Shown: positions 8,400-46,118 of the stretch, piece after piece
How the letters are laid out: each line of letters starts with the position of its first letter
Numbering within the stretch: the stretch's first letter is position 1
Origin: Bacteroidales bacterium
Lineage (GTDB): Bacteria > Bacteroidota > Bacteroidia > Bacteroidales > VadinHA17
DNA: 64,000 nucleotides
Direction of reading: 5' to 3'
Assembly (NCBI GenBank): GCA_038245405.1
Contig: JBBRSO010000003.1
Span: forward strand, 3,300 to 67,299
Translations under genes and position numbers: made by a program
The notes under the pieces: generated by a model
The model's database searches: none
Seen by the model: the letters and a program-made list of their open reading frames with translations, nothing else
What the model was told of the DNA's origin: nothing

Positions 8400-8849
8400 A
8401 TGGCAACTGAGATCGAACGTAAATTTCTGGTTAAAGGTGAGTTCAAGCATCTGGCAGTGAAAGAAATAAAGATGATTCAGACTTATCTGTCAATAGATCC
8501 GGATAAGACAATAAGGCTGAGGATCGCAGATGACAAGGCTTATCTTACCATCAAGAATAAGCCTGAACAGGGTAGATTCGGGCGGAATGAATGGGAAGTG
8601 CAGATCCCTGTTAAGGATGCAACAGAAATGATGAGCATTTGTCTGCCCGGAAAGATCGTAAAATCAAGGTTCCTGATTCCTTCAGACAGACATACCTGGG
8701 AAGTGGATGTATTTCACGAAAAGAATGAAGGTTTGGTAATCGCGGAAATTGAATTGGGTTCCGAAGATGAAAGTTTTGAAAAACCCGACTGGGCTGGAGA
8801 TGAAGTGACAGGTATTCCGGCATATTACAATGCAAACCTTCTAAAATAA
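8400..8849 (+). CDS. CYTH (triphosphate tunnel metalloenzyme) domain protein
   Basis: 149 aa. N-terminal EIERKFLV (ExExK signature). Size is typical of class IV adenylate cyclase / CYTH proteins. Confidence 0.8.
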   Translation: MATEIERKFLVKGEFKHLAVKEIKMIQTYLSIDPDKTIRLRIADDKAYLTIKNKPEQGRFGRNEWEVQIPVKDATEMMSICLPGKIVKSRFLIPSDRHTWEVDVFHEKNEGLVIAEIELGSEDESFEKPDWAGDEVTGIPAYYNANLLK

Positions 8850-9056
8850 TTCTACTTTAGCCTTAAACCCGATTCTATTAGCTGGCACCTGCAATGAATA
8901 TTCAAAAAAAGCAATTCCCCAACTCAGTAATATAACAATGAACAGACTAATATTCTCAAACCTGCTCATTGTCCTCAGCTTTAGATGCCCATACCATGCT
9001 ATTGTCATGAAACCATTGGACATCATCAGTAAAAGTACGGTATATAAACCTTTCAT
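8841..9056 (-). pseudogene. DUF486 (DMT-superfamily small membrane protein), apparently 3'-truncated
   Basis: 71 aa with the family hallmarks SNGFMTIAWYGHLK and SWGIAFFEYSLQVPANRIG. It stops about 40 residues short of the usual length, and its stop lies inside the convergent CYTH gene. Confidence 0.45.
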
Positions 9057-9086
9057 CTTCTGAGGGAGATGTTAAAGGAAATGACT

Positions 9087-10049
9087 TTAATTCAAATCAT
9101 TTATGATCCTCTGTAACACTTCAGGAAACTCATGTCCGGCTTCCAGTGTTGCAGCACAATAACCACCATCAGGAGATATGCATGGATTTCCATTTATTTC
9201 AATAACAAATACATTATCATTACTGTCGGTACGGACATCAACTCTTGCATATCCTTTCAATCCAAAGAGCTTCCAGCAAGCAAATGCAGCCGATCTCAGG
9301 TTTTCTAGTAATTTAGGAGTAAGCTTATCACCGTGAAATTCGCGGATAGTATTTATATACTCAAAGCTCTCCATTTCCCATTTAGCATTAAAATCGATGA
9401 TTTTGGGTTTATTTTCATCGTAATTTACAAAGACTATCTCTGCAGGGGGCATCACTTCAGGCCCATCTGGTCCTGCAAGAACGCTGACGTTGAATTCTCT
9501 GCCATCGATAAAGTCTTCAATGAAATAGTGGGCATCATCAAGATTTTTCAGTTTTTCCTCATAACCCGGCTTACATTCGAACACTGAATCGGCTGTTATA
9601 CCCAGAGAACCATCTTCCCATATTGGTTTTACAATATATTTCCGTCCGGGTATAAGCATTTTGTATTCTGAAGGAGCGTATGAACCCGGGTTATTGATAC
9701 CGGCATTTTTCATAGCCTTGCTGCAAATTGTTTTATTTGTTGTGAGAAATATTGATTCAACAGAATTTCCTGAATAAGGGATGGAATACATATTCAGGAG
9801 GGCAGGCACAAAATATATAAGTTCTCCCTTATTGTTTATCGATTCCACAAGGTTAAAGACAAAATCAGGCTTTTCTTTTGCGAGAACAGCAATCTCCTCC
9901 ATGAAGCGTTCAGTGATGCCTTTTCTATATACGGAAATCCCCAGTTCAATTAAATGTTTTTCAATGTGAGCTACCTGATCGAGTACATCCAGCTCATCGG
10001 CTAATGCGTTTACACTTGGCTCGTTATAAATAATACAACACCTCCTCAT
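9087..10049 (-). CDS. ATP-grasp ligase, D-alanine--D-alanine ligase family (second of a tandem pair)
   Basis: 320 aa. Ddl-like layout with a C-terminal GYARVDVR...VFVIEINGNP motif. Lies 38 nt downstream of its paralogue. Confidence 0.75.
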   Translation of the reverse strand: MRRCCIIYNEPSVNALADELDVLDQVAHIEKHLIELGISVYRKGITERFMEEIAVLAKEKPDFVFNLVESINNKGELIYFVPALLNMYSIPYSGNSVESIFLTTNKTICSKAMKNAGINNPGSYAPSEYKMLIPGRKYIVKPIWEDGSLGITADSVFECKPGYEEKLKNLDDAHYFIEDFIDGREFNVSVLAGPDGPEVMPPAEIVFVNYDENKPKIIDFNAKWEMESFEYINTIREFHGDKLTPKLLENLRSAAFACWKLFGLKGYARVDVRTDSNDNVFVIEINGNPCISPDGGYCAATLEAGHEFPEVLQRIINDLN

Positions 10050-10087
10050 AATTCCTGTCCCTATATTTAATTTAGAAACTCAAAGTC

Positions 10088-11056
10088 TTAGTTTTTAATC
10101 CTCCTGATAGCTGATTTCATAATCATCTCAAGTAATGCCTGGTATTCGATGCCATACATTCTGGCTAGTATCGGAAGATCAGAATGTACAGGGTTCAGAC
10201 CTGCCAGCGGATTTGCTTCGATGAAACAGATATTCCCATTACGATCGGCTTTCAGATCTACTCTGCCGGCATCTACAGCGTCTAATGCTTTCCATGCCCG
10301 CAGTGATACTGATTTGCACTCCTCAATTATTTCAGGATCAAGAGGTTTATATGTACAATAATTCTGGTAATTCTCTTTCACTTCAACTGAATAAGGCAAA
10401 TTATTAATAGTCATCACCTCCATTCCGCCAATTGCCACAGCATCATCGCCGTAACCTACAACACCAACGGTGAATTCCCTTCCTGGCAGATATTCTTCCA
10501 AAAGGGCCGGCTGATGGAACTCTGAAAGGATCCATTCAACCATGGTCTTAAGCTCCTCAGGGCTGTGGACGAAACTTTTATCAGTTATTCCTTTACCAGT
10601 ACCTTCTGAAACGGGTTTTACAAACAGAGGATAGCTTAAAGTACATCTCTCAAGATCATTAATGTCGTTAATAAGTAAACCAGGGCTAACAGGAACGCCT
10701 GATGCAGCCACTACAAGCTTTGCCAAATGTTTATTTAGGGATAGTCCCATAATTACAGGACCGCTGAAAACATACGGGATTTTATACTGATCCAGTATAG
10801 CAGGAACAACTGATTCCCTTCCATCTCCATAAAGTCCTTCTGCAATATTAAAGACGATATCCCATTTATTGCCTGCGGCAAGAGCTTCAATCAATTGAAA
10901 TGTATTTCCGATGGGTTCAGTCTGATGACCCATTAGTTTCAATGCATTTTCAATTGCATCAACTGTTTCCTGCTTATCAAATTCGGCAGTTTCATCCATG
11001 GAATATCCACGATCAATGTACCATGACCGGAGATCATACGTTAAACCAACTTTCAT
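10088..11056 (-). CDS. ATP-grasp ligase, D-alanine--D-alanine ligase family (first of a tandem pair)
   Basis: 322 aa. LFVKPVSEGTGKGI, EEYLPGREFTVGV and AGRVDLKADRNGNICFIEANPLAGL are typical of the Ddl/ATP-grasp fold. Lies 9 nt downstream of the aminomutase gene. Confidence 0.8.
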   Translation of the reverse strand: MKVGLTYDLRSWYIDRGYSMDETAEFDKQETVDAIENALKLMGHQTEPIGNTFQLIEALAAGNKWDIVFNIAEGLYGDGRESVVPAILDQYKIPYVFSGPVIMGLSLNKHLAKLVVAASGVPVSPGLLINDINDLERCTLSYPLFVKPVSEGTGKGITDKSFVHSPEELKTMVEWILSEFHQPALLEEYLPGREFTVGVVGYGDDAVAIGGMEVMTINNLPYSVEVKENYQNYCTYKPLDPEIIEECKSVSLRAWKALDAVDAGRVDLKADRNGNICFIEANPLAGLNPVHSDLPILARMYGIEYQALLEMIMKSAIRRIKN

Positions 11057-11065
11057 TTACAAACC

Positions 11066-12307
11066 CTATTTTTCAGGATATTCACATAAAACACCTTTGT
11101 AGTTACGCAACACTATCTTATCGTTGGTATGTTCCACTACGTACTCGGGAAGCAAAGGGATTTTCCCACCTCCGCCCGGGGCGTCAACAACAAATGTAGG
11201 TACAGCATAACCACTGGTAAAACCGCGCAAACCTTTTATTATTTCAAGCCCTTTTCTGACAGTCGTTCTGAAGTGGCCCGATCCCGGGATCAAATCGCAT
11301 TGATAAAGGTAATAAGGTCTTACTCTGATCTTTAATAGTTTGTGCATGAGTTCTTTCATGGTAGGAACATTATCATTGATTCCTTTCAGAAGAACTGTCT
11401 GACTTCCGAGAGGAAAACCTCCGTCGGCCAGCTTGTTGCATGCCTTAGCGCATTCTTCCGTAATTTCATCAGGGTGCGAAAAATGCAGACTGAGGAAAAG
11501 TGGATGATATTTTTTGAGAACATTGATCAGATTATCGGTAACTCTCTGAGGAAGAACCACGGGTATTCTGGTTCCGATACGAATCATTTCAACATGCTCA
11601 ATGCTACGAATATTTGAAAGTATGTAATCGAGGGTCTCATCATTTAAAGTGAGAGGATCACCACCACTTATCAACACGTCACGAACTTCTTTGTGAGTAG
11701 CAATATAATTAAATGCTTTTTCAAAATCCTGCCGGGCTAATTTGTCTAACCGTCCGACTGAATGTGATCTGGTGCAATATCTGCAATAATTTGAACATAC
11801 TTGTGTAACTGTGAATAAAACTCTATCGGGATATCTGTGAACAATACCTTTAACCGGGGAGAATGCCTTCTCGTGCAGAGGATCAGATTGTTCGCTACTT
11901 GTCTCAAGCAATTCCTCAATAACAGGTATAACATTGCGACGTAAAGGATGCGCAGGTTTACTGTCATAAATGAGTGATGCAAAGTAGGGAGTGATTCTGA
12001 GTGGCAACCGGCCTTTCAGATTGTTGATGGCTAGAATCTCCTTGTCTGATAATTTCATGATTTTCTTCAGGTCTTCGAGATTGTTGATTGAGTTTCGAAG
12101 TTGCCATTTCCAATCATTCCAGGAGTCGATAGTCGTTAGGGGGAAGTAGCGGTGCATAAACTCCGAACTTCGGTTGCTAACTAACGGATTTGGGATTTCG
12201 TTTTGCGAAAAAAACGTGGTTTTCGCGCCAGGCTCTTCATCAGAAGAGCAACCCACGAGGCGACTCTCTCCGTGGAGCGTCTTAGCCTCATTATTGTTAG
12301 CGTTCAT
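11066..12307 (-). CDS. kamA: lysine 2,3-aminomutase (KamA-family radical SAM enzyme)
   Basis: Radical SAM motif CSNYCRYCTRS and RPYYLYQCDL...PTFVVDAPGGGGK, closely resembling the Clostridium enzyme. The ORF track begins at TTG 12376. The first ATG (12307) gives 413 aa, the usual size. Confidence 0.85.
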   Translation of the reverse strand: MNANNNEAKTLHGESRLVGCSSDEEPGAKTTFFSQNEIPNPLVSNRSSEFMHRYFPLTTIDSWNDWKWQLRNSINNLEDLKKIMKLSDKEILAINNLKGRLPLRITPYFASLIYDSKPAHPLRRNVIPVIEELLETSSEQSDPLHEKAFSPVKGIVHRYPDRVLFTVTQVCSNYCRYCTRSHSVGRLDKLARQDFEKAFNYIATHKEVRDVLISGGDPLTLNDETLDYILSNIRSIEHVEMIRIGTRIPVVLPQRVTDNLINVLKKYHPLFLSLHFSHPDEITEECAKACNKLADGGFPLGSQTVLLKGINDNVPTMKELMHKLLKIRVRPYYLYQCDLIPGSGHFRTTVRKGLEIIKGLRGFTSGYAVPTFVVDAPGGGGKIPLLPEYVVEHTNDKIVLRNYKGVLCEYPEK

Positions 12308-12722
12308 AACAGATGATGAATGTTTTTCACCTTTTCTTTTTAAGTTTGTTTGTTTTAAATTAATACTGTTTATCAAAAATAATTAGCCACGAAAATATAT
12401 AAACTATAAATACATTGTATCATCATGCTACCATAAATATTAACACTAATTGAATTTTATTAACAATCAAAATTTTTCAGTCTATTAGATGTAGCTATAA
12501 TTCATTGATATTCATAATTATACAATTTTTTATATTAATTATTCTCTTGTAAATTATTTTGGTATTTTTTTGATCTGAATTTAAAAATTTGACGAATAAT
12601 AATTGCTCTTTTCATTAATATAGACTGTTACAACATTCAGACTGAAAAATGATCAGTTTTTAAATCTTCATTCAATAACATAAAAAAATAAAAAATCGTA
12701 TATTTTCGACCATTTTTTATTA

Positions 12723-14162
12723 ATGATAAACATCATAAAAATGAATCCTGAGATCTTTCCAAAAAAACGGAATGGCATAAAATCATTTTTTAAAGACGTT
12801 GCAGAAGCAATTTCAGGCACAGAACAGGACTTCACTGAAGGCAAAATGAGCAGGGCTATTCTGCTTTTGTCAATACCCGCAGTTTTGGAAATGGTGATGG
12901 AGTCAATTTTTGTTATCGTTGACATCTACTTTGTATCAAAGCTCGGGGCAAATGCAGTGGCAACTGTTGGAATCACTGAATCGGTGATAACCATAATTTA
13001 TGCTATTGCAATAGGGCTGGGCATGGCTACTACATCGATAGTATCGCGCCGGATAGGTGAAAAAAACCCGGACTCAGCATCAATTGCCGCATTCCAGGCT
13101 ATATTGGTTGGGATAATAGTCTCATTTGCAATAGGTATCCCTGGAGCATTTTTTGCAAAAGACCTTTTGAGGACAATGGGCGCAACAAGCCAGATAGTCG
13201 AAACAATGTCGGGTTATACAAGGATCATGCTGGGCGGCAATATAGTGATAATGATGCTGTTTATTATTAATGCCATATTCCGAAGCGCCGGTGATGCAGC
13301 TGTTGCAATGAAAGTGCTGTGGATAGGAAATATAATTAATATTATGCTTGATCCCTGTCTGATCTTTGGTCTGGGTCCCTTTCCGCATTTAGGCATAACA
13401 GGAGCAGCTGTAGCCACTACAATTGGAAGAGGCACTGCTGTTGCGGTACAGTTTTATCTACTGTTCTCCGGCAGGAAAAGAATAAAGCTGGCCAGGAAAC
13501 ATCTTCGGGTTGATTTCAAATTAATGATAAAACTTATGAAGCTTTCTTTTGGGAGCATAGGACAGAATCTTATCAGTACTACGAGCTGGATAGCGCTTGT
13601 TCGCATCCTTTCTTCATTTGGAAGTGAAGTGGTTGCAGGTTACACAATAGCGATAAGGATAATAGGTTTTAGCATTATGCCATCATGGGGTATCAGCAAT
13701 GCTGCATCAACACTGGTAGGCCAGAACCTGGGTGCAAAAAAACCGGAGAGGGCTGAAAAAGCCGTCTGGGTAACGGCTTGGGTAAATATGGTTCTCCTTA
13801 GTATAATAGGATTGATGTATGTTCTTTTCCCTGAGCCATTCATTCGCTTGTTTATAAACGATGAGAACGTTGTGAAATCAGGCATTCTCGGACTCAGGAT
13901 AATAAGCATAGGATTCATTTCGTATGGTCTGGGAATGGTTCTCGTAAACTCCTTTAATGGGGCAGGAGATACATCTACGCCACTCAAAATTAATATTTTT
14001 GCCTTCTGGATGCTTGAAATCCCACTGGCATGGCTCCTCTCAATGAAAGCCGGTATGGAAGAATCGGGAGTATTTATTGCAATTGTTGTAGCAGAGTCAT
14101 TTATGACCCTTACAGCATGGATAATATTCAGAAAAGGGAAGTGGAAGCTGAAAGAGGTTTAA
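12723..14162 (+). CDS. MATE-family efflux transporter
   Basis: 479 aa, about 12 TM helices, with a typical MATE N-terminus (ILLLSIPAVLEMVMESIFVIVDIYFVSKLG). An alternative ATG lies at 12741. Confidence 0.85.
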   Translation: MINIIKMNPEIFPKKRNGIKSFFKDVAEAISGTEQDFTEGKMSRAILLLSIPAVLEMVMESIFVIVDIYFVSKLGANAVATVGITESVITIIYAIAIGLGMATTSIVSRRIGEKNPDSASIAAFQAILVGIIVSFAIGIPGAFFAKDLLRTMGATSQIVETMSGYTRIMLGGNIVIMMLFIINAIFRSAGDAAVAMKVLWIGNIINIMLDPCLIFGLGPFPHLGITGAAVATTIGRGTAVAVQFYLLFSGRKRIKLARKHLRVDFKLMIKLMKLSFGSIGQNLISTTSWIALVRILSSFGSEVVAGYTIAIRIIGFSIMPSWGISNAASTLVGQNLGAKKPERAEKAVWVTAWVNMVLLSIIGLMYVLFPEPFIRLFINDENVVKSGILGLRIISIGFISYGLGMVLVNSFNGAGDTSTPLKINIFAFWMLEIPLAWLLSMKAGMEESGVFIAIVVAESFMTLTAWIIFRKGKWKLKEV

Positions 14163-16936: not shown

Positions 16937-19669
16937 TTACTCGGAAATTTCAAAAGTGTACTCTCCTGATCCCGCTTCCATAGTCAGCTTATTATCAGTA
17001 GTTTTCACATTTTTAAGATAGATATTATCCGTCAGGGATTTTCCTGATTCTTTTACGTTATTCTGACTGGCAGCAGGAAGAATTATTGTAGCATTGGTAT
17101 TGGCTGGGATACTTACCCTTACAATTACTTTCCCGTCTTTTCTTTCCCAACCTGACGCAATTGTACCATAAACACTCTCAAATGATGCTTTAGAATAGTC
17201 AAGCTTCTTTGTAGGATGTGGCTGAATTGTTATATGTTTATAACCGGCAACCATTGTTTCAATACCTGCTGAAACCCTGTACATCCAGTCTCCAATAGCG
17301 CCATATGCATAATGATTGAATGAGTTCATACCCTGGTCCTGAAATGTTGAGTCTGTTTTCTCTCCATCCCAGCGTTCCCAGATAGTAGTTGCTCCCATTT
17401 TTACAGGATAAAGCCATGATGGATACGATACCTGAAGTAAAAGATCATATGCAGTTTCTGTTAAACCATTGTCGGATAACACATGACACAGATAAGGCGT
17501 TCCAAGAAACCCTGTCGATAGGTGATTACACCTCTTTTAGAGGTCACTGTCAAGAAATGCTGCAGCTTTAGCACGAAGATTATCGGGCAGGAGGTTGAAC
17601 TTAAGTGCCAGCACGTAGGATGTCTGAGAATTGGTGCCTACTCTGCCTGCATTAGTAACATATTCATTTATAAATACATCTTTTATTTTGTTGAAAATAT
17701 CGGTATATGTCTTTGCGTCGTCTGTTTTTCCCAGAACTTTTGCTGCTTCAGCAAGTATACTGGCAGAATAGGCATAGAATGCAGTTGCGATAAAATCGCG
17801 CTCTGTGTGTCCATCAGCTTCTGTATGATTATTTACAGGAGGATGATAAAACAACCAGTCGCCATATTTACTGCCACCGGTCCAGATATATTTGTCACCT
17901 GCCTTTTTCCTGATATATTCTACCCAGGCTTTCATACTCTGATATTGATTTTCAAGGAAGTTTTTATCGCCATATACAAGGTACATTGTCCATGGAGCAA
18001 TCACAGCAACATCTCCCCATCCGGCAGATGGCTGGGCTGTCAGTGCGCCTTGCTTATTAAGGATATCGGGAATAACATCAGGAATCTCGCCTCCTTTTTT
18101 CTGATCGGCAGCCACATCTTTCAGCCATTTTGTGAAAAAGGCAGAAACATCCATATTAAATGCTGCGGTTCTGCAGAATGCCTGCGCATCACCTGTCCAG
18201 CCCAAACGCTCATCTCTCTGCGGACAGTCTGATGGTACATCCACAAAGTTGCCTTTCTGACCCCATTGGATATTATGCTGCAACTGATTTAAGAGTGGGT
18301 TTGAACATTCAAATGAACCGGTTACGCGCATATCAGAATGGACTACAACCCCTGTAAGATTATCGGCGGTAAGCTCTCCTGGGAATCCGGAAACCTCAAC
18401 GTATCTGAAACCCATAAATGTGAATTTTGGTTCATAAACCTCTTCTCCGTTTCCTGAAAGGGTATAGATTAACTGACATTTTGCAGTCCTGAGATTTGCT
18501 GTGTAGAACTCACCTGTTTTATCTAAAACCTCAGCATGGCGAAGTGTGATAACAGTTCCTTTTTTCCCTGTGACTTTTATCCGAACCCATCCGACCATAT
18601 TCTGTCCCATATCAACTAAAAGACTTCCCTTCGGACTCCGGAATATTTTAACTGGTTTAATTTCCTGAATTTTTCTGACCGGTGAACCTTCAGATGCTAC
18701 CAGATTAATGTTATTATAATTCCCTGTTCTGACGATTTGCCATTTTTTGTCATCATAACCAGCGCTGCTCCATCCGGTAAGTTTCATATTTGCATCGTAA
18801 GTCTCACCATTATAAATATCATTCATTCTTACGGCTCCTTCATTTGTTGCCTTCCATGTTTCATCACTGATAACTGTTGATATTGAACCATCGGAATAAG
18901 TTATTTTAAGCTGAAGCAATATGCCTAATCTCTTACCGTAAACAGCCCAGTTATCACCCCATGCAAGTGTTCCTCTGAACCAGCCATCGCCAAGTTCGGC
19001 CCCGATAGCATTATTCCCTTTTGTTAACATTTTTGTGACGTCAAAAACCTGGTATTGCAATCTTTTACTGTATGAAGTCCATCCGGGGGTAAGAACCTGA
19101 TCACCGACCTTATGGCCATTCAACTGCAGTTCATAGAAACCATGTGAAGTGACGTAGATCCTGGCTGATGATAGTGTTTTTGCAACAAGGAACTCTTTCC
19201 TGAATAATGGGGAAGGAGAATATCTCAGAGTATCATTCTGCATTTCAATCCATTTGGCTTTCCATTCCGCTGGGTCGAGCAATCCCATTTCCCAATATGC
19301 AACGGGGCTCCATTTCGATTCTTTCCCATTATTATCCCAGATCTTTACCTGCCAGAAATATTTTTGACCTGACTTTAATTCCGGACCTTTATATATATTC
19401 AGTACCGACTGATCCGATTCAATCTTTCCTGACTGCCACACCGTTTTCACTGACGAAAACTTTTCGTCAGTCGCTACCTTTAATAAATATGCTTTCTGCA
19501 TTATGCCATTACCTGTGCCTTTTATCTTCCATGAGAATCCCGGACTTTTATTTTCGATCCCCATCGGATTTACTTTATGGTCGATTGTCAGGTCCTTTAC
19601 TATCAGATCCTGTGAAAAAGCAACTCCTGAAAGTGCGAAAAAAACGAGAGTGATTAAGAGTGACTTCAT
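16937..19669 (-). pseudogene. GH78 alpha-L-rhamnosidase interrupted by a single in-frame TAA (17537-17539)
   Basis: The 720-aa and 181-aa ORFs are in the same frame. Read-through gives ...AAAFLDSDL*KRCNHLSTGFLGTPYLCHVLSDNG..., which restores the conserved GH78 TGFxGTPYL motif. Also present: WGDVAVIAPWTMYLVYGD and GATTIWERWDG. The signal peptide starts at ATG 19669. Confidence 0.8.
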
Positions 19670-19794
19670 AATTTTTGGATATTTTGAATTTATAATCAAG
19701 TATATAAAAAAATGTCTGAATAAAAAAATATCTCAGTTGGCTTTTTCCTGACTGAAAGTTTATAAATTGCAGATCACTCAATTTTAAAAAACCA

Positions 19795-29912: not shown

Positions 29913-30686
29913 ATGCCGAGGTCCGATATACCAATAGTGCTTAATTCATTTTCTCCGATCAGCCTGTTTGAAATGGATGAGGTAAAGCTCATGAACAGGG
30001 TCGAGATCAAATATGTGTTTTCATCAGGGAAGCTGCCTGTTCTTCTCGATCTTCTGTCGAAGAGTTATCATGTGCTCGAGATAGAAGAAGCAAGAGATTT
30101 TTTATATCATACAACTTATCTCGATACTCCTGATTACCTGCTCTTCAACCTTCAAGTGAGAGGAAAGCTAAACCGGCATAAAGTAAGATACCGGCGCTAT
30201 GAAGCATCGGGATTAACTTTTCTGGAAATAAAAAAAAAGACAAACAAGAACAGAACAATAAAATGGCGCATAGAGAATAGATTATCCGGAACATTCGACA
30301 ATGCTGCATCAACTTTTTTAAAGGACTATTTTCCACACAATACCAGCGATTTACAACCTTCACTTATAAATCGGTTTTCAAGGATTACACTGGTTGGCAA
30401 GGAATTTCAGGAAAGGATAACTCTTGATTCTAATCTCAGTTTCAGTAGTCCCGATGGAAAAAATATTGAACTTCCATATCTTGCTGTAGCAGAAATAAAA
30501 AGAGGTCGACATAGTGGAGTGTCTCCGATCGGAAGTATCATGAAAGAGATGGGTATTCAGCCTAACCGGTTCAGCAAATATAGCATGGGCAGTTCACTCA
30601 TAAGGAAAATGCCCCGCACTAATACTCTCAAATCAAATATCCTTCTTATAAATAAAATCGAAAATGAATTCAATGAATCTACTTGA
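29913..30686 (+). CDS. VTC-domain (polyphosphate-polymerase-like, triphosphate tunnel fold) protein
   Basis: 257 aa. The pattern VEIKYVF...LEIKKK...AEIK of alternating basic/acidic beta-strands is typical of bacterial VTC-domain proteins. Confidence 0.65.
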   Translation: MPRSDIPIVLNSFSPISLFEMDEVKLMNRVEIKYVFSSGKLPVLLDLLSKSYHVLEIEEARDFLYHTTYLDTPDYLLFNLQVRGKLNRHKVRYRRYEASGLTFLEIKKKTNKNRTIKWRIENRLSGTFDNAASTFLKDYFPHNTSDLQPSLINRFSRITLVGKEFQERITLDSNLSFSSPDGKNIELPYLAVAEIKRGRHSGVSPIGSIMKEMGIQPNRFSKYSMGSSLIRKMPRTNTLKSNILLINKIENEFNEST

Positions 30687-31365
30687 CCCTGACCAGATTA
30701 GCGTGGCTGGCATACAACTATTTGATCTTCCAAGTTTTCTGGTTCTTGTCGGTCGATTTACGCTTAATATGATCGTCATCCTGATTCTGGTCAGATGGTT
30801 ATATTATTCTACAACCAGAAGGAAAGACTATCTGTTTACTTATATTCTAATATCAAGTGTAATATTTCTGTTATGCTACCTATTGGCAAGCGTAAAACTT
30901 CAGATTGGATTTGCACTCGGTTTATTTGCGATCTTCGGCATAATAAGATACAGAACAAGTTCCATACCCATAAAAGAAATGACTTATCTGTTTCTTATAA
31001 TCGGAGTCTCAATTATAAATTCACTTGCAGACACAAAAACCAGTGTGGCAGACGTGCTTTTTACAAACTTTGTGATAGTTGCTATTACTTTTTGCATGGA
31101 AAAAATATGGTTGAAGAAAAATGAGTTGTCAAAGATTATCACTTATGAAAAAATCGAGCTGATCAAACCTGAGAATATCCAACATCTCATAAAAGATCTC
31201 GAGGAAAGAACCGGAATTAAAAAAATAAACAGAGTCGAAATAGGAAAAATAGATTTCCTGAAAGATACCTGCAGATTACAGATATTTTTTAATGTTACGG
31301 GTAATCAATTGAATAATTTTACCCGGGCTGAAATAGTTAAAGAAAATGATGATGATGACGACTAG
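30664..31365 (+). CDS. DUF4956-like membrane protein
   Basis: 233 aa, 4-5 TM helices then a soluble tail. This is the usual partner of bacterial VTC-domain genes. Overlaps the VTC gene by 23 nt. Confidence 0.55.
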   Translation: MNSMNLLDPDQISVAGIQLFDLPSFLVLVGRFTLNMIVILILVRWLYYSTTRRKDYLFTYILISSVIFLLCYLLASVKLQIGFALGLFAIFGIIRYRTSSIPIKEMTYLFLIIGVSIINSLADTKTSVADVLFTNFVIVAITFCMEKIWLKKNELSKIITYEKIELIKPENIQHLIKDLEERTGIKKINRVEIGKIDFLKDTCRLQIFFNVTGNQLNNFTRAEIVKENDDDDD

Positions 31366-32026
31366 GAGAATCTATGTACTGACAGTTACTTTCTTACTTT
31401 CCGTAGCGGCTGTTGCGCAGGATAAGGATTTTGGCATATGGTATGGAGTATCAGGCGAGCATAAGATTAATAAAAAGCTGGAGCTGAATGTTTCAACTGA
31501 GGTGAAAACTTTCAGAAATGCCTCAAAAATTGAAGAAGCGTTTATAGAGGGTGGGCTCGGTTATAATTTCAATAAATATTTTGCAGCTGACGGTTCTTAC
31601 AGACTTTCAAAATGCATTGAGGATAATAATTCCTATTACTTCCGTCATAAATTCTATTTAGATTTCAAAGGAAGCCTCCCCGTGGGTAATTTTTCATTCT
31701 CGGCTCGCTTAAGATTCCAGACACAAACTAAAACATTTATTAAAAACGATCGGGATAAACAACCCGATTATACAGGGAGAATAAAGCTGAAGGCAGTTTA
31801 TAAAACACCTGTTTTTCCTGTCAATCCTTATGTATATGCTGAAGCATTCAGCCCGATGTTCTCAGACAAGACAAGAACCATTGAAAAAATAAGATATTCA
31901 GCAGGTCTGGAATTTAAGATTGTGAAAAATCATTCCGTGGAACTTGGCTATATCTTCCAGCGCGATTATCTGCCGCATGTTTCAGACATGAGCATTGCAT
32001 CGGTTAATTACAATATAAAATTTTAG
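31346..32026 (+). CDS. DUF2490-like outer-membrane beta-barrel protein
   Basis: 226 aa. Signal peptide, alternating-hydrophobicity beta-strands and a C-terminal aromatic residue (...NYNIKF). Overlaps the DUF4956 gene by 20 nt. Confidence 0.5.
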   Translation: MMMMTTRRIYVLTVTFLLSVAAVAQDKDFGIWYGVSGEHKINKKLELNVSTEVKTFRNASKIEEAFIEGGLGYNFNKYFAADGSYRLSKCIEDNNSYYFRHKFYLDFKGSLPVGNFSFSARLRFQTQTKTFIKNDRDKQPDYTGRIKLKAVYKTPVFPVNPYVYAEAFSPMFSDKTRTIEKIRYSAGLEFKIVKNHSVELGYIFQRDYLPHVSDMSIASVNYNIKF

Positions 32027-37575: not shown

Positions 37576-37664
37576 CCACCCCCTTCTTACCCCCAACCCC
37601 CTAAAGGGGGCTTCAAATCAAGAAAATGGAAGTATTGGAACCCCCTTTAGGGGGCAGGGGGTTT
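37576..37664. repeat. double C5/G5 hairpin element
   Basis: ccacccccttcttacccccaaccccctaaaggggg...ccccctttagggggcagggggttt. The second hairpin contains the last codons (PPAP) and the stop of the upstream propeller gene. Confidence 0.55.
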
Positions 37665-38777
37665 CTTACTACCGAATGCCATCAATCTACCATCCTCTGT
37701 CAGAATAAAAAACTTTCCGATTATAACAGCCGGAGAGCTGCTGACAGGAGTTCCTGCATTAAAACTCCACAGTTTTTTTCCATCAGATAACGCCAAAATA
37801 TTCACAAATCCATCCATTCCTGAAAATAGAACTTTGTCTGAGGTGACTACAGCTGACCCGGTTACTCTTCCTTTGGTTCGGTATTTCCAGAGCAATTTGC
37901 CATCAGCGGAATTGTAGCAATAAAGATATTTATCTTCACTTCCTATCACAATTGAATTATTTCCGATTGCAGGTATCGCTAAGATTGAACCAGCTTCTGC
38001 GTTGGGATTAATTCTCCAGGCGATTTTTTTTGTTTTTGTATTTACGCAGTAATTAGTGCCGTCATAATCGCCGAAATATGCAAAATCCTGTGAAAGGGCA
38101 GGGGATGAAGCAATATAAACACCAATATTTACCGTATCCTTTTGTTTCCCGGTTAGCGGATCAACTATTCTTATCATTCCATCACATCCTCCAAATACAA
38201 TTTTTCCGTTCAGGATGGCAGGTGTACCGTTTATATAATTCTCAGTCTCTACTTTCCACATCATCTTGCCTGTTTCCGGATTTACACAATGCAGATAATA
38301 ATCGTAGCTCCCGAATACTATGCCGGCCTTGTTCCCGGAAACCCAAACATTTGCTGAACCGGCAATCTGGTTGTCGGTGACGTATTTCCATAGCAGTTTA
38401 CCGGTTGCTTTATCGACAGCTGTAAGGACTCCTTCGTTTGTACCAAATATGATCTTCTTGCCAAATACCAAAGGAGCTGCGTCAATTGAACTGCCTGATT
38501 CGTACTTCCATTTTATCTGGCCATCGCTGCTTACGGAAATAAGGGATCCTTTTTCATTGCCGAAGTAAATTGTCCCTTCGCTTATTACTGGTGAAGATTT
38601 TGTAGAAGCACCTGTTTTAGTACTCCATAGAAGCTCCGGGGTCACCGGAAGAGCAATATTCGTGCGGCCCGACAAGTCTGATTTGCCTCTGAATAATGGC
38701 CAGTCATCGCTGCCGTTCTGAGCTTCTGAGATCAATGAGAAGAGAAGAAAAAGAGTTGGAATGATAAAATATCGCAT
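37647..38777 (-). CDS. exported PQQ-like (BamB-type) beta-propeller repeat protein, paralogue 5
   Basis: 376 aa. Signal peptide, DWPLFRG start motif, and repeated G-x-hydrophobic-x-A-hydrophobic-D...G-K-x-L-W-K blades. Confidence 0.75.
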   Translation of the reverse strand: MRYFIIPTLFLLFSLISEAQNGSDDWPLFRGKSDLSGRTNIALPVTPELLWSTKTGASTKSSPVISEGTIYFGNEKGSLISVSSDGQIKWKYESGSSIDAAPLVFGKKIIFGTNEGVLTAVDKATGKLLWKYVTDNQIAGSANVWVSGNKAGIVFGSYDYYLHCVNPETGKMMWKVETENYINGTPAILNGKIVFGGCDGMIRIVDPLTGKQKDTVNIGVYIASSPALSQDFAYFGDYDGTNYCVNTKTKKIAWRINPNAEAGSILAIPAIGNNSIVIGSEDKYLYCYNSADGKLLWKYRTKGRVTGSAVVTSDKVLFSGMDGFVNILALSDGKKLWSFNAGTPVSSSPAVIIGKFFILTEDGRLMAFGSKKPPAP

Positions 38778-38827
38778 TTATAAATTTATTAACAAATTTA
38801 TTTTCCTAAAATCAGCCCCCATCCTTG

Positions 38828-38922
38828 GCAACCCCCTAAATCCCCCATTTGGGGGACTTTGGCTTCTCAACAACCCTCGGCTGGCGTTCTTAGCCCCCCA
38901 TTTGGGGGGGTGGGGGGTTGCC
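38828..38922. repeat. composite C5/G5 nested-hairpin element
   Basis: gcaaccccctaaatcccccatttgggggac...ttcttagccccccatttgggggggtggggggttgcc, a homologue of 8176-8287. It encodes the last ~20 residues and the stop of the FeS-protein ORF. Confidence 0.6.
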
Positions 38923-40018
38923 AGGGGCAGGCAGAGTTTTTGCCATATGCCCTTCGCCCTGTTCTCTGCGCCATCAGGCTCAGAGCTCCAGTCGGACAAA
39001 CATCCACAACCTCTTTGCTTTTTGTCTTAAGAATATCATTAAAATCTTCTGTAAGAGGCTCCGATATTATGCTTATAAATCCCCTGTTAATAAAACAGAG
39101 TGCAGGTTCTTCATCCATCTGTTCACAAAGCCTTACACATAGGCCACATTTGATACATTTTGCGTTTTCAAATATCAGACCAGTACTTACATTTATCTTC
39201 TTTCGTGCCGGAGAATTCACAATTTTACCCCTTGGATCTTTTACTGAAAACTCGTCGGCAATATCCCTCAGCCTACAATCATCAGCAGCTCTGCAATCAC
39301 AATGCATACAGCTCCCTGCTTCAGTCTGTGCAGAAGTTGAATCGGTTATTTCCCTTGACCTTTTGTCGCCGTTAGTGCATTCTTTGAGCCATTCTGTTAA
39401 TTCTTCATGTTCCAGTTTTCCAATCCTTGAGGTGAATCTCTTAGAAGCTTTTTCTGAGGTACCTGATTTCTCAGAGTTATGATTTCCCTGATTTGTTTGC
39501 TGATAAATAAATATCTGCAGGTTTCTTATTGAGACTGGCAGGTCAATTTTTTTCCTTCTGCAGGCATTTTCGCAGTAGGCAGCACAACAGATGCATTTTA
39601 ACTCAGCATCTTTTGTCTGACCTGCCGATAGCTCAACAGCGCCCCTAAAATCACCTGAGCTCAATAGCCTGTTCAACCGAGGCACATCATAACCGGCAGG
39701 ACATACGACATGACAAGGCGCCTCACATTCGGCGCGATGTTCGGAAAGCAGCATTTCAACTGCCTTTTTTCTTAATGACACTACCTGTTCCGATTCTGTA
39801 TCAATATCCATACCTTCCTGTGTAAGTGCGGAGCAGGAGGGTAGAAAATTGCCGGTCCTGTTGTCTTTAACCATACAGACCATACAGGATGAATAATGTG
39901 GCAATCCTTCCTTATGGCATAAGGTAGGGATATATATACCGCATGATTTTGCAAATTCCTGAATAGTCAGGCCATCTGCAACTTCATATTCTATATTATT
40001 TATTTTCAGCTTAACCAT
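38867..40018 (-). CDS. 2Fe-2S plus multi-[4Fe-4S] electron-transfer protein with no catalytic domain
   Basis: 383 aa. NuoG/HydA-like N-terminus (KINNIEYEV...IPTLCH...CMVCMV), then HRAECEAPCHVVCPAG, CICCAAYCENAC, CMHCDCRAADDC, CIKCGLCVRLCE and VCPTGA. No signal peptide. The C-terminal ~20 aa derive from the repeat. Confidence 0.75.
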   Translation of the reverse strand: MVKLKINNIEYEVADGLTIQEFAKSCGIYIPTLCHKEGLPHYSSCMVCMVKDNRTGNFLPSCSALTQEGMDIDTESEQVVSLRKKAVEMLLSEHRAECEAPCHVVCPAGYDVPRLNRLLSSGDFRGAVELSAGQTKDAELKCICCAAYCENACRRKKIDLPVSIRNLQIFIYQQTNQGNHNSEKSGTSEKASKRFTSRIGKLEHEELTEWLKECTNGDKRSREITDSTSAQTEAGSCMHCDCRAADDCRLRDIADEFSVKDPRGKIVNSPARKKINVSTGLIFENAKCIKCGLCVRLCEQMDEEPALCFINRGFISIISEPLTEDFNDILKTKSKEVVDVCPTGALSLMAQRTGRRAYGKNSACPWQPPTPPNGGLRTPAEGC

Positions 40019-42434
40019 TTATGTTAATGATTTCAATTGCTTCCTCCGGGCAAACTATTCTACAATTATCACACTTAGTGCAAATTGACTGATCTATCTC
40101 ATGCTTTTCATAAGGTTTGAAGGGAATAGCTTTTACCGGACAATCCTGTGAGCATTTTGTGCACCCGGTGCAATTGTCAGTTATATTATATTTTATGAGT
40201 GGCTGGCACTTATTGGCCCTGCAGATTCCCCTGGTATGTTCTTCATATTCCTCCCTGAAATATTTCAAACCAGTGAGAACCGGGTTAGGAGAAGTCTTAC
40301 CTAGTCCGCACAAGCTACCCTCCTTAACAAATTTACAGAGCTCTTCAAGAGCATTGAGATCTTCAAGAGTGGCTTTCCCTTCAGTTAAAGAGGTGAGTAT
40401 ATTGAGCATCTGTTTTGTGCCGATCCTGCAGAAAGTACATTTACCGCACGACTGCTTGTGTGTGAACGTAAGGAAATACTTAGCCATATCAACCATGCAG
40501 TCGGTATTGTCAAGAACAACCATACCACCGGATCCCATCATAGCGCCCATCTTCATAAGTTCCTCATAGTCAATTGCAGTATCAGCTTTACCAGCAGGAA
40601 TGCAACCACCGGAAGGTCCACCTATCTGAACTGCTTTAAACGTGTTGCCGTCGGCAATGCCATCACCGATATTCTCTACAATTTCGCGGATTGTGGTACC
40701 CATGGGTACTTCTATCAGACCACCTTTGGATATCTTGCCGGCGAGAGCAAAGACTTTCGTTCCCTTGCTCTTTTCTGTGCCTACTGCAGCAAATGCCGAT
40801 GCTCCGTTATTTATGATCCATGGCACGAGAGAGAGGGTTTCTACATTGTTGACAAGGGTTGGCTCTCCCAGATAACCTTTCACAGCAGGATAAGGCGGTC
40901 TTAGATGAGGTGTACCTCTTTTCCCTTCAAGTGAGGCTATGAGAGCTGTTTCCTCACCGCAAACAAATGCTCCGGCTCCTTCAAAAATATTTATATCGAA
41001 CGAGAAAGAACTACCGTTGATGTTGCTTCCCAGTAATCCGTTTTCATAACAATGTTTAAGAGCTATTCTTATTCTTGTTACAGCCAGCGGGTATTCAGCC
41101 CTGATATAGAAAATACCTTCTCTGGCGCCTGTGGCATAGCCTCCTATTACCATCCCCTCGATTACCCTGTAGGGAAACGACTCAAGCAACATTCTGTCCA
41201 TAAAGGCCCCAGGATCGCCTTCATCGCCATTGCATACTACATATTTATATTCTCCGGGAGTATTATATGAGATAGACCATTTTCTGCCGGTAGAAAAACC
41301 AGCTCCTCCACGTCCTCTCAGACCGCTGTCGGTGATTGTTTTTATAATTGACAACTTGTCGTTTTCCGCATAGCATTTATTCAATGCCTTAAAACCTCCT
41401 TTTTCCTGATATTCAAAAATTGATTCAGGGGAAAGAATCCCACCGTTTTCAGTAGCAATATGGACCTGTTTGTTAAGAAAATTATTCAGATATTTCTCAC
41501 GGATGTCAACAGGCAGATTCAACTGTCCTGTTAACTTATCATCTGAAAGAAATGTATCGACAATATCATTAATCTTAGATTTTATCCTCTTATTTAATTT
41601 GCCCGGACGAATGTGCTTCAGAAGAATTTCTTCAACCTGCGATATGGTTACTTTTGTATATCTTGAATGTACGTTCTCCTTTGTCACAATTTCCATCAGG
41701 GGTGTCTGATTGCAAACTCCCACACAGCCGACCTGCTTAAGGCTTATATTGAGATTATACCTTTCTTTTATTGCAAATATTTCGGAAAGTATCTCTTTAC
41801 TTCCTCCGGCAACACAACATGAACCTATACCTATTCTGACCTCCGCAACTTCGTTTCCATCGGTGGTTGACCCGGAAACTTCCTGAACTTTTTGTCCGTT
41901 GATTTTAAAATCATGTATTATCTCATCGATCTGTGTTGGTTTCACATGTCCGTATGTTTTATTATCTATCTGAACGACAGGTGCAAGGGTACAACAGCCA
42001 AGACAGGCAACCTCTTCGATGGAAAACAGATTATCAGGTGACGCATTACGACTATTATCAATTTTCAATGTCCTTTTAAAAGCGTCCGATATCAGGGGGC
42101 TGCCTTTCACGTGACAGGCAGTTCCAGAACAAATTTTTATGGTGTGTTTTCCTACAGGAAGATGTCTGAACTGTGTATAGAAAGTAGATACACCCGAAAT
42201 CTGACCTGGTGTTATATCAGTTACTTTGCAGATGTATCTGAGTGCGTCAGATGACAGCCAGTTTAGCTTTTTCTGGACTTCCTGAAGAATCATTATCACT
42301 TTGCCTGATTCGGTTCCTGTGAGCTTTATTACCTCGTCAATAGCCGAATACATTTCTTCCGGGGAAGATTGTTTACCACCACAGCAAGTATCCAATATCT
42401 CGTTTTTTTCCGTATTCAATTTTCTGTAATGCAA
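40011..42434 (-). CDS. fused NuoE/HndA - HndB - NuoF/HndC NAD(P)H-oxidising flavoprotein with a C-terminal 2x[4Fe-4S] ferredoxin
   Basis: 807 aa. NuoE-type 2Fe-2S (CSGTACHV...CLGCC), a second thioredoxin-like 2Fe-2S (GSCCVAGG...CVGVC), the NuoF core (GLRGRGGAGFSTGRKW; SCGKCTFCRIG) and two CxxCxxCxxxCP motifs. The start is uncertain: TTG at 42434, first ATG at 42353. Confidence 0.85.
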   Translation of the reverse strand: MHYRKLNTEKNEILDTCCGGKQSSPEEMYSAIDEVIKLTGTESGKVIMILQEVQKKLNWLSSDALRYICKVTDITPGQISGVSTFYTQFRHLPVGKHTIKICSGTACHVKGSPLISDAFKRTLKIDNSRNASPDNLFSIEEVACLGCCTLAPVVQIDNKTYGHVKPTQIDEIIHDFKINGQKVQEVSGSTTDGNEVAEVRIGIGSCCVAGGSKEILSEIFAIKERYNLNISLKQVGCVGVCNQTPLMEIVTKENVHSRYTKVTISQVEEILLKHIRPGKLNKRIKSKINDIVDTFLSDDKLTGQLNLPVDIREKYLNNFLNKQVHIATENGGILSPESIFEYQEKGGFKALNKCYAENDKLSIIKTITDSGLRGRGGAGFSTGRKWSISYNTPGEYKYVVCNGDEGDPGAFMDRMLLESFPYRVIEGMVIGGYATGAREGIFYIRAEYPLAVTRIRIALKHCYENGLLGSNINGSSFSFDINIFEGAGAFVCGEETALIASLEGKRGTPHLRPPYPAVKGYLGEPTLVNNVETLSLVPWIINNGASAFAAVGTEKSKGTKVFALAGKISKGGLIEVPMGTTIREIVENIGDGIADGNTFKAVQIGGPSGGCIPAGKADTAIDYEELMKMGAMMGSGGMVVLDNTDCMVDMAKYFLTFTHKQSCGKCTFCRIGTKQMLNILTSLTEGKATLEDLNALEELCKFVKEGSLCGLGKTSPNPVLTGLKYFREEYEEHTRGICRANKCQPLIKYNITDNCTGCTKCSQDCPVKAIPFKPYEKHEIDQSICTKCDNCRIVCPEEAIEIINING

Positions 42435-44110
42435 AAAAGATTTTTCCTTCCTCTTATATAAATACTCTTATATGAGAATGCGGGAGAGCAATCTGTCGCT
42501 TCACCGATCGCAGACTCACCAATAAGCTTAAATATGCCGTCAGCATTAACAATATGCATCATCCCGCCTCTGTCGAGATAATACACTTTCTCGTCCGCAA
42601 CGATAGGTGATGCATAAAAGGGATCCTGAAAAAAGTGTGTCCATGCGGTGTCACCTTTTGAAGCGTTATAGCATGCCACATCTCCGTTTCCGGTTGAAAG
42701 AAACAAATACTTATCTGTTGCAACCGGGCTTGACACATCGGGGGTATAAGCATTATCTTCCCAGCTAATAACAGGGGTGTTTCCCGGCTTTATTGCCACA
42801 AGCTTTGCGTAATCTGTTACAGCATAAGCTGTTGTGCTGTTTACCGCAACCGACGGTGCAACATCACCGCTCATACATTCAATTTCCCAAAGCGCTTTGC
42901 CTGTTACCGGGTCAAAGCTGCTGACAGCAGGATTACCGTTAATTATGAGCTGTGGTATGCCATTAAAATTAGCCAGAACAGGAGATGACCATACAGCGTG
43001 CCCATTCCTCAGAGTTTCCCATTTCTGGTCCCCAGTCTCAGGATCAAAACCGATAAGCGAGATTTTCACATTGCTGTCGAATTGTAGAAGAAGAGTATTC
43101 TCATACACCAGAAGTGAGGAGGAGTATCCATAGCTGCTTTCAGGAACACCAATATTTTTTGCCCATTTTTTGTTACCTTCCATATCAAAGCAAGCAAGGT
43201 TCCCATTTGCAAACACGGCGAATACTGCTTTCCCGTTTGTAGCAACTGTAGATACCGCTAGTCCGGCTTCAGGATCTGTCTTTGGCAATTCCGCTGGTTC
43301 ACCTGATATCTCAGAGGCGACGCCTGTCCAGAGAATTTTACCATCCTTTTTATCGATACAATAGACTTCACATATCTTGTCTCTTGCACCCGTTATAAAT
43401 AGCTTATCTTCCCAGATAACAGGGGAACTCTTGCCTCTGCCCGGCACTTCAATTTTCCACTTTATATTTTTTCCTGATGCAGCGTCCCATTCTGTGGGAT
43501 AATCTGTCCCGCCAGCTATAGCGCGGCTATCCTGCCCGCGGAATGCAGGCCAGTTTGTCTTATCTGGCTTAAAAGTTTTTCCGCTTCCTGCCGGTTCTTT
43601 TTCTTTCGAAACCGGCGACTTACCCGACAGATCGGGAAGACTTGCTCTGAGCAGGAATGAAGAGATAACAGCAAGAATAAATATAAGAGAGACTGATGAA
43701 ACAATAAATTTACGATTTCTGTTCCGGCCGGCTTCGCCATCTGGTTTTATATCGGTTAAAACGGGAGCAGGTTTTTCATTATCAGCAATAATCCTCTGAC
43801 AAATTACAAACACTATTATCCCGGCAAGCAGGAGGTATGAACCTGTTTCAACCTGCCATCTGGAACTGAAATATGCTTTCCTGGCCATAAGATCCATTGC
43901 CCGGATCTGCGCGGCTTTCTCACCTCCACCCGGATCTTTGTCGAACTGTTCCTTCACCGTCAGCAATATCGGGTTATCAAGTGGATTCACAATTTTCAGC
44001 TGCACAAATGTTAAGATCATTGTCATTGCAACAAGAAGTGCAAATCCCAACGAGATCTGACTGACAACCTTAAGTATACTGATATCACTTTCAGTAATTT
44101 TGACCTTCAT
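42416..44110 (-). CDS. PQQ-like beta-propeller fused to an N-terminal multi-TM domain, paralogue 4
   Basis: 564 aa. About three hydrophobic helices in the first 160 aa, then NWPAFRG and propeller blades. Confidence 0.75.
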   Translation of the reverse strand: MKVKITESDISILKVVSQISLGFALLVAMTMILTFVQLKIVNPLDNPILLTVKEQFDKDPGGGEKAAQIRAMDLMARKAYFSSRWQVETGSYLLLAGIIVFVICQRIIADNEKPAPVLTDIKPDGEAGRNRNRKFIVSSVSLIFILAVISSFLLRASLPDLSGKSPVSKEKEPAGSGKTFKPDKTNWPAFRGQDSRAIAGGTDYPTEWDAASGKNIKWKIEVPGRGKSSPVIWEDKLFITGARDKICEVYCIDKKDGKILWTGVASEISGEPAELPKTDPEAGLAVSTVATNGKAVFAVFANGNLACFDMEGNKKWAKNIGVPESSYGYSSSLLVYENTLLLQFDSNVKISLIGFDPETGDQKWETLRNGHAVWSSPVLANFNGIPQLIINGNPAVSSFDPVTGKALWEIECMSGDVAPSVAVNSTTAYAVTDYAKLVAIKPGNTPVISWEDNAYTPDVSSPVATDKYLFLSTGNGDVACYNASKGDTAWTHFFQDPFYASPIVADEKVYYLDRGGMMHIVNADGIFKLIGESAIGEATDCSPAFSYKSIYIRGRKNLFCITEN

Positions 44111-44111
44111 C

Positions 44112-45446: not shown

Positions 45447-45463
45447 GTTACATTTTCTCTTTG

Positions 45464-45493: not shown

Positions 45494-45516
45494 TAAGTTT
45501 TTCCGACTTCCGGCAT

Positions 45517-46077: not shown

Positions 46078-46118
46078 ATTAAAGAATTTCAATATTTAAA
46101 ATTCCATCTACAGGGTAT

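Follow-up and report, generated by a model that had tools for sequence, protein, structure and literature searches.

A lysine 2,3-aminomutase gene linked to two Ddl-fold ATP-grasp ligase genes in Bacteroidales and distant bacteria: a candidate core for the synthesis of small beta-lysine-containing molecules

The DNA analysed here, a stretch of 64,000 nucleotides from a Bacteroidales bacterium (positions 3,300 to 67,299 of contig JBBRSO010000003.1, assembly GCA_038245405.1; hereafter the window), carries a kamA gene for a putative lysine 2,3-aminomutase together with two genes, AG1 and AG2, for a first and a second ATP-grasp ligase resembling D-alanine-D-alanine ligase (Ddl). These three genes, called the triad below, lie head to tail in the order kamA, AG1, AG2 (Table 1). 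An original prediction, made from the sequence alone, had placed them on the minus strand, separated by 9 nt and 38 nt, and the open reading frame (ORF) coordinates agree exactly. A remnant of a DUF486 membrane-protein gene begins 30 nt downstream of AG2. On the other side, the 346-bp spacer between the maximal kamA ORF and a divergent MATE gene (12377-12722) is as AT-rich as had been described, with a GC content of 0.194 against 0.399 for the window. The untranslated spacer would measure about 415-460 bp if kamA starts at ATG 12307 or GTG 12262.

Table 1. Features of the kamA-AG1-AG2 locus (window positions) and of deacetylase fusion genes at related loci (L numbers)
Feature	Position	Strand	Remarks
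kamA	maximal ORF 11066-12376, 436 codons	minus	likely extent 11066..12307
AG1	10088-11056, 322 codons	minus	Pfam Dala_Dala_lig_C
AG2	9087-10049, 320 codons	minus	Pfam Dala_Dala_lig_C and ATP-grasp_3
DUF486 (DMT_6) membrane-protein remnant	8841-9056, 71 codons	minus	Pfam DMT_6 match, model positions 1-55 of 104
MATE gene	12723-14162	plus	divergent from kamA
Structured RNA element	12205..12289	minus	over the translation-start region and first codons of kamA
Conserved 5' leader/promoter region of the operon	12310..12475	minus	column conservation; direct repeat TGTTAATA
GNAT-HDAC-type fusion	L095:10018-11868; L143:6226-7980; L114, L121, L123, L144, L155		beside operon
GNAT-HDAC-type fusion	L068, L077	opposite strand	upstream of operon

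The kamA product has the Pfam domains Radical_SAM and LAM_C, and it matched the lysine 2,3-aminomutase (LAM) of Clostridium subterminale (PDB 2A5H) with an E-value of 2e-136, residues 13-367 being aligned. In this alignment the cysteines of the CxxxCxxC motif (C125, C129 and C132), R134, D293 (in QCDL), and D330 and K337 (in VVDAPGGGGK) are all kept, and D293 and D330 are separated by the 37 residues that had originally been counted. The same residues are invariant in 42 of 42 KamA homologues encoded by equivalent operons of distant organisms. From the published structure, we take D293 and D330 to bind the epsilon-ammonium group of lysine, R134 to bind its alpha-carboxylate and K337 to be the lysine that holds pyridoxal phosphate (PLP). 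Because these lysine-specific residues are kept, the window KamA is predicted, with good support, to belong to the lysine type and not the glutamate type, and to convert free L-lysine to beta-lysine, which upholds the original assignment.

The window KamA exceeded the cut-off of TIGR00238, the NCBIfam subfamily model of the KamA family (373 bits against 199). Its best-scoring equivalog model was AblA, at 499.9 bits against a cut-off of 525.4; the score stays below the cut-off because the C-terminal domain is missing and this part of the model is unmatched. The protein stops at LAM residue 368, so that the C-terminal zinc domain of the clostridial enzyme is absent, and nearly all of the 42 distant homologues also end near the point where this domain would start. 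C268 of the clostridial enzyme is an asparagine in the window KamA and is variable in the homologues. An EpmB-type modifier of elongation factor P (EF-P), with no conserved linkage to the ligases, had been named as a result that would speak against the original prediction. The EpmB equivalog scored 256.9 bits, under its cut-off of 369.3, and the linkage is conserved, as described below.

The window KamA belongs to a distinct subfamily and, unlike the clostridial enzyme, has an N-terminal tail, which bears a [DE]-E-P-[PG] motif. In 33 of 41 distant homologues (L082-L160) this tail contains an acidic stretch followed by E-P-P-(S/G), while the window and its Bacteroidales family have D-E-E-P-G (window about 12232-12249) and not the P-P form. 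One idea is that the motif is a docking site for the ligases. The extent of kamA to 12376 given originally stands as that of the maximal ORF, but translation probably does not begin at the TTG at 12376; ATG 12307 and GTG 12262 are the start candidates that are conserved. Another candidate, M74 (ATG 12157), was rejected, as many relatives have Ile at that codon and the peptide SNRSSEF is conserved upstream of it.

AG1 and AG2 are paralogues with about 25% identity, AG2 being the more divergent. The AlphaFold model of AG1 (pLDDT 90.6) matched many Ddl structures in Foldseek over its full length, with template modelling (TM) scores of 0.72-0.80, about 330 columns and 22-26% identity. The three-domain ATP-grasp Ddl fold is therefore assigned to AG1 from this model, and to AG2 from its sequence only. 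By sequence profile as well as by fold, the best structure matches to AG1 were all D-Ala-D-X ligases, and PylC was not among its sequence matches. The equivalents of K97, K144, K215, R255, D257, E270 and N272 of Escherichia coli DdlB are kept in the family alignments of both AG1 and AG2, and that of S281 is kept in AG1; the equivalences to DdlB match the HMMER alignment to Yersinia pestis Ddl. Since these Ddl ATP/Mg and transition-state residues are kept, both ligases look catalytically competent.

The substrate side is different. The motif GGxSxExxVS, which in Ddl contains E15 and serves the first D-Ala, is absent from both proteins. In its place AG1 has a longer loop, TYDL...AEFD, with invariant acidic residues D8, E25 and D27, and AG2 has an acidic D-x-x-D loop. 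At the position of Ddl Y216, AG1 has E or a variable residue and AG2 has W. The H-S...L segment, which in Ddl holds the carboxylate of the incoming amino acid, is kept in AG1, and the positions of S281-L282 are G-F in AG2. The acidic loop of AG1 would fit a diamino substrate. Source databases label both proteins as D-alanine-D-alanine ligase, and they could in principle be cell-wall D-Ala-D-Ala or D-Ala-D-X ligases that merely neighbour kamA. The fold and catalytic residues agree with this label, and no second Ddl-like gene besides AG1 and AG2 was found in the 64-kb window. However, the NCBIfam Ddl model gave only 131 bits for AG1 and 96 bits for AG2 against a cut-off of 243, and the E15 motif and Y216 are replaced as just described. 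In addition, no cell-wall genes were found near the operon by Pfam scans of the window or by clustering of flanking ORFs, and the two genes co-occur and fuse with KamA and GNAT genes across phyla. A cell-wall role is thus very improbable, and the scores and residue patterns indicate, as had been expected originally, that AG1 and AG2 are not ordinary Ddl enzymes.

Linkage of kamA to two Ddl-like genes had been put forward as the property to examine, and it proved to be conserved. A scan of a genome collection with AG1 recovered 80 species-level Bacteroidales loci, which were read over 17 kb, and the order kamA-AG1-AG2 is kept in 80 of 80. This count alone proves little, because the flanks are also syntenic. 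A metagenome scan seeded with a diverse AG1 alignment gave 80 further loci, in which AG1 is 43-52% identical to that of the window and locus GC ranges from 0.29 to 0.70. Where the contig left room, kamA lies immediately upstream of AG1 in 47 of 53 loci (89%), and AG2 immediately downstream of AG1 in 49 of 56. Clustering of the flanking ORFs of these metagenome loci revealed no other family common to more than a handful of them; families that seemed to be exceptions turned out to be antisense artefacts or generic ABC ATPases. The source names of AG1 relatives include Bacteroidales, Deltaproteobacteria/Desulfobacteraceae, a Pseudomonadota metagenome-assembled genome, candidate division KSB3 and WOR-3.

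The genes are also found fused, as a search covering 1.84 billion representative proteins showed. KamA and AG1 form one 746-aa protein (P0147/L081), at a locus that also carries an MFS transporter gene and an AG2-like gene; an apparent second case, in L120, was seen only as a continuous ORF of 786 aa. AG1-AG2 fusions are more numerous, with many proteins of 640-730 aa in about 15 representative clusters, AG2 lying behind AG1. Apparent AG2-GNAT fusions occur in L090 and L148, as judged from ORF length and a GNAT match, the joint itself being unchecked. In these fusions the domain order matches the gene order of the operon. In the window's clade, dN/dS is 0.025-0.047 for the kamA core, 0.03-0.06 for AG1 and 0.04-0.05 for AG2, and all three core genes are under strong purifying selection. 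Given the linkage conserved in distant loci, the fusions and this selection, the triad is a functional unit spread across phyla.

Some related arrangements were observed beside the triad. A putative metal-binding protein of the CxxCxxCC type (PF03692) is encoded between kamA and AG1 in two loci (L102:742-1251 and L155:1520-2128), and another near the operon in L162. Double ATP-grasp fusions also occur as a second family (P0131-P0133, P0154, P0163, P0167, P0173 and others), in which an AG1-like C-terminal half (33-37% identity) is joined to a more divergent N-terminal half; this could be a paralogous system whose domains stand in the opposite order. An AG1-like C-terminal domain (37% identity) is also present in a 980-aa protein of the anaerobic eukaryote Paratrimastix pyriformis (P0235, KAJ4454857.1).

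The three-gene operon described originally holds as the core of a larger unit, but it is incomplete. In distant loci AG2 is directly followed by a gene for a GNAT of about 160-180 aa (Pfam Acetyltransf_1/7). Of the metagenome loci with room for it, about 33 of 45 carry this gene; among the 80 Bacteroidales loci it occurs in 33, which are mostly the more distant ones (L033-L080). Its best NCBIfam matches were to RimI and were weak (35-47 bits, below the cut-off); no AblB match was found by NCBIfam among the operon GNATs of the relatives. The closer relatives of the window (L001-L032) have no GNAT gene, nor has the window beside its operon, so that the window's clade has lost a gene that most relatives carry. 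A full-length DUF486 gene (about 122 aa) occupies the position of the window remnant in about 50 of 80 Bacteroidales loci and in the distant loci L106, L113 and L136. Comparison with a fuller operon (L068:9934-10787 against window 8841-9087) indicates that the window locus is a reduced form of an operon of four to five genes. Sometimes a further gene recurs beside it, encoding a GNAT fused to a histone-deacetylase (HDAC)-type domain (about 580-730 aa, Table 1), which suggests reversible acetylation of the product.

Other candidate partners were not retained. The divergent MATE exporter had been noted originally, with export of the product as a possibility. Within the close family only some loci have it next to kamA, and around the operons of distant loci it was not found; it was rejected as a partner, its adjacency not being conserved. 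No small ORF is conserved within 1.5 kb of the operon in the 80 loci, the sole matches being antisense or fragment artefacts. A reading as a ribosomally synthesized and modified peptide (RiPP/graspetide) system was rejected for lack of a conserved precursor-peptide ORF and because the ligases are of the Ddl type and not the RimK type. With PADLOC, neither KamA, AG1 and AG2 nor the GNAT and the GNAT-HDAC fusion matched a defence system. Finally, Pfam scans of about 50 larger window ORFs found none of the known beta-lysine partners, namely kamDE, kdd, kce, kal, an AblB-type GNAT, an EpmA-like synthetase or a non-ribosomal peptide synthetase (NRPS), in line with what had been noted from the sequence.

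The acetyltransferase and deacetylase domains bear on the possibility that the substrate is a protein. The ligases would then place beta-lysine, or a chain of it, on a side chain or terminus, in the manner of EpmA/EpmB or of RimK acting on S6, with the GNAT and HDAC-type enzymes tuning the modification. The GNAT is closest to RimI, an acetyltransferase of ribosomal proteins, and HDAC-type domains, as is generally understood, often deacetylate protein lysines. In lacking a C-terminal domain the KamA resembles EpmB, and the acidic E-P-P-(S/G) motif in its tail contains Pro-Pro, a type of motif that depends on EF-P. However, the motif of the Bacteroidales KamA tail is E-P-G and not P-P, and the kamA product scores 257 bits with the EpmB model (cut-off 369) against 500 with the AblA model. 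No gene for a target (efp, a ribosomal protein or a carrier protein) is conserved near the operon. Moreover, the best structure matches to AG1 are D-Ala-D-X ligases, which act on small molecules, the known protein-modifying ATP-grasp enzymes falling in other families, and AG1 keeps the Ddl site for the carboxylate of a free amino acid. Protein modification is therefore considered unlikely.

Taken together, the sequences point to a lysine-type aminomutase and two apparently competent Ddl-fold ligases that are not Ddl, in a tight and repeatedly fused linkage. With moderate confidence, we propose that the triad is the core of a self-contained module making a small beta-lysine-containing peptide or amide, or a short oligomer. 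In the first step, well supported by the sequence, KamA would form beta-lysine from free L-lysine by radical S-adenosylmethionine (SAM)/PLP chemistry. AG1 would then activate a carboxylate as acyl phosphate and join it to an amine, as Ddl does. Since it is AG1 that occurs fused to KamA, beta-lysine would most likely provide the carboxylate; the acceptor would probably be an amino acid, because the Ddl residues that hold the incoming carboxylate are kept. AG2, whose acceptor site appears differently shaped, would form a second amide bond, giving a molecule resembling a tripeptide or else a short oligomer of beta-lysine. The RimI-like GNAT encoded next to AG2 would, in most lineages, N-acetylate a free amine of the product, in some the GNAT-deacetylase fusion would remove the acetyl group, and the DUF486 membrane protein may carry the product across the membrane. 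Candidate roles for the product are a compatible solute or a polyamine-like cytoplasmic cation. Thus the ligation of beta-lysine foreseen by the original prediction is retained as the core of the pathway, while its details on accessory genes, the exporter and the start codon have changed; the type of product, be it a di- or tripeptide, an oligomer or another, is inferred.

A different arrangement hints in the same direction. In L140:892-3055 and L141:7974-10118, an AG1-like gene is followed on the same strand by a gene for a Peptidase_S58 protein. Peptidase_S58 comprises DmpA, BapA and their relatives, which cleave off N-terminal beta-amino acids, and the pairing hints that AG1-type ligases make peptides beginning with a beta-amino acid.

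Several points weigh against the proposed pathway. The substrate assignments of AG1 and AG2 are drawn by residue analogy with Ddl. Acetylation is dispensable for the core function, as the window's clade has no GNAT, and the RimI-like GNAT and the HDAC-like deacetylase belong to types that also act on proteins. The closest genome loci were sampled from fens, soils, lake sediments and digesters, and fen, sediment and digester habitats give no obvious call for an osmolyte. Furthermore, at least one genome (L164, a contig of 4.47 Mb) has AG1-AG2-GNAT with no adjacent kamA, and kamA is not upstream of AG1 in 6 of 53 loci, so that the link of the ligase pair to beta-lysine may not be a strict one. 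Likewise, a GNAT follows the AG1-AG2 fusion P0122 and no kamA is nearby, and several AG1-like genes stand alone or with other partners. These cases would suit a pathway in which AG1 and AG2, together with the GNAT, build an acetylated peptide out of ordinary amino acids, KamA being often adjacent yet separable and providing beta-lysine for another fate, for instance as a free or acetylated solute. Against this stand the adjacency of kamA in most loci with room, the single KamA-AG1 polypeptide of P0147, which is hard to explain without a shared pathway, and the fact that neither the flanks nor the window scans revealed any other beta-lysine-consuming gene linked to the operon. Such a division of labour has, in our estimate, a low probability.

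A more specific form of the proposed beta-lysine pathway is offered tentatively, as a rather doubtful extension. In several phyla (Bacteroidota, Desulfobacterota, KSB3, WOR-3 and others) the product might be a short, reversibly acetylated cationic beta-peptide with a housekeeping role as polyamine substitute, solute or cofactor. KamA, AG1 and AG2 might form a complex held by the acidic E-P-P tail of KamA, and in the window's family an RNA might sense the product or a partner protein and control translation.

The RNA in question lies over the kamA start and consists of three hairpins and a fourth stem that crosses one hairpin, as a pseudoknot or as an alternative structure. Over the first 75 or so codons of the maximal kamA ORF, synonymous differences are rare (pS 0.00-0.15), while in the core dS is above 0.85 or saturated. 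Between about 12300 and 12100, nucleotide conservation lies at 0.85-1.0. The leader, extending to 12475, has a column conservation of 0.7-0.94 across 43 species, against 0.2-0.5 in the rest of the spacer. The structure was assessed with RNAalifold and a pair count on 66 sequences: in the proposed structure 98.7% of the cells are paired, a share that drops to 39-54% once the partners are slid. In ten pairs both members have changed, and none of 500 shuffles reached the observed values. Many of the counted pair changes split two clades and hence represent few events; recurrence within clades was seen in hairpin B, for C-G to U-A, and in the fourth stem, for a series of G-C, G-U and A-U. Among the compensatory changes, some affect the encoded residues, a V-to-M change being matched by one from T to M, and in others both sides change silently.

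In the fourth stem, GUGG is the partner of CCAC; the other clade has AUGG and CCAU at these places. The GUG/AUG contained in this stem is a candidate start codon of kamA. Codon-position entropy showed coding periodicity from GUG/AUG onward in both clades, and upstream of it only in the window's clade. The window sequence folds with a minimum free energy of -35.2 kcal/mol (z = -4.0). No Rfam family matched the window at gathering thresholds, and none of note was found in the kamA leader at permissive thresholds. With a covariance model, the element was detected only in this Bacteroidales family and was not found in 50 distant loci. A T-run after the hairpins was considered as an intrinsic terminator and not adopted, since it is absent in the L053-L080 clade and lies inside translated sequence. 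The element may act in translational control, and this covarying structure deserves notice in its own right as a candidate for a new cis-regulatory element.

The remaining window genes are unrelated to the operon and include a Bat operon, rhamnose utilisation genes, efflux systems and an asparagine synthase gene. The alpha-L-rhamnosidase gene (16937-19699, minus strand) is split into ORFs of 720 and 181 aa with the break within the six-hairpin domain, which is a frameshift, pseudogene or sequencing error. At 37647-51448 (minus strand), genes for six PQQ-like/BamB-like beta-propeller proteins are interleaved with those for a NuoF-like flavoprotein, 2Fe-2S and 4Fe-4S proteins, an unusual combination. 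The region 53757-56973 (plus strand) encodes a 790-aa glycyl-radical enzyme similar to pyruvate formate-lyase (PFL) and its radical-SAM activase, adjoined by the asparagine synthase gene. VTC-domain, DUF4956 and DUF2490 outer-membrane-like proteins are encoded in a row at 29913-32026 (plus strand).

To our knowledge, the fates of beta-lysine are few, namely fermentation, N-acetylation as a solute, EF-P modification and a handful of antibiotics. The operon would add a fifth fate, independent of the ribosome and of NRPS. With AG1-family proteins numbering in the thousands in public metagenomes, the module seems to be common, and it is carried by uncultured anaerobes of peat, sediments and digesters; many annotations as "D-alanine-D-alanine ligase" in these organisms would then not denote cell-wall enzymes. 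As a compact target of three or four genes, it makes the identity of the product directly testable by heterologous expression. No account of kamA with two Ddl-like ligases was found in the full-text literature searched, the coverage of which did not include the 2009 amidoligase survey of Iyer et al. (PMC3268129).

The operon resembles several known systems and is a member of none. As in AblA/AblB, which makes N-epsilon-acetyl-beta-lysine in methanogens, Chlorobium and Bacillus, a KamA-type mutase and a GNAT are encoded in one operon in most relatives. Here, however, two Ddl-fold ligases stand between mutase and GNAT, the GNAT is RimI-like, of about 165 aa and without an AblB match (the window having none), and the mutase, being without the C-terminal domain, scores slightly less than the AblA cut-off requires. 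With EpmB/EpmA the operon would share the formation of beta-lysine by a C-terminally short KamA homologue and the ATP-dependent joining of its carboxylate to an amine. EpmA, however, is a paralogue of lysyl-tRNA synthetase whereas the operon ligases are ATP-grasp proteins, and no gene resembling an aminoacyl-tRNA synthetase or encoding EF-P was found in the window scans or conserved in the flanks. With Ddl- and VanA-type ligases AG1 and AG2 share the full-length fold (TM up to 0.80 for AG1) and the ATP/Mg and transition-state residues, but their E15 loop and Y216 are replaced, they reach about half the cut-off score and they have other genomic partners.

More distant parallels are found in other pathways. 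In PylB/PylC a radical-SAM rearrangement of lysine is also followed by an ATP-grasp enzyme that joins the new carboxylate to an amine; PylB, however, is not a KamA-type PLP enzyme, and the operon has no PylD and two ligases instead of one. Ngg/AsnO, for N-acetylglutaminylglutamine amide, and MysC/MysD, for mycosporines, offer examples of small amides made by serial ATP-grasp ligases without an NRPS, the Ngg system also involving a GNAT step, but they use other ATP-grasp subfamilies and substrates and no beta-amino acid. In the negamycin cluster of Kitasatospora purpeofusca, a beta-lysine-forming enzyme and a member of the ATP-grasp superfamily have been reported (10.1101/2025.05.27.656397), and the cluster has a kamA2 gene (10.1101/2025.07.31.667836). 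This cluster belongs to actinomycete secondary metabolism, and its hydroxylase, methyltransferase and N-N bond-forming enzymes are not linked to the operon, but it is a precedent for combining beta-lysine formation with an ATP-grasp enzyme. Compared with these systems, the operon is a widespread uncharacterised variant of beta-lysine metabolism.

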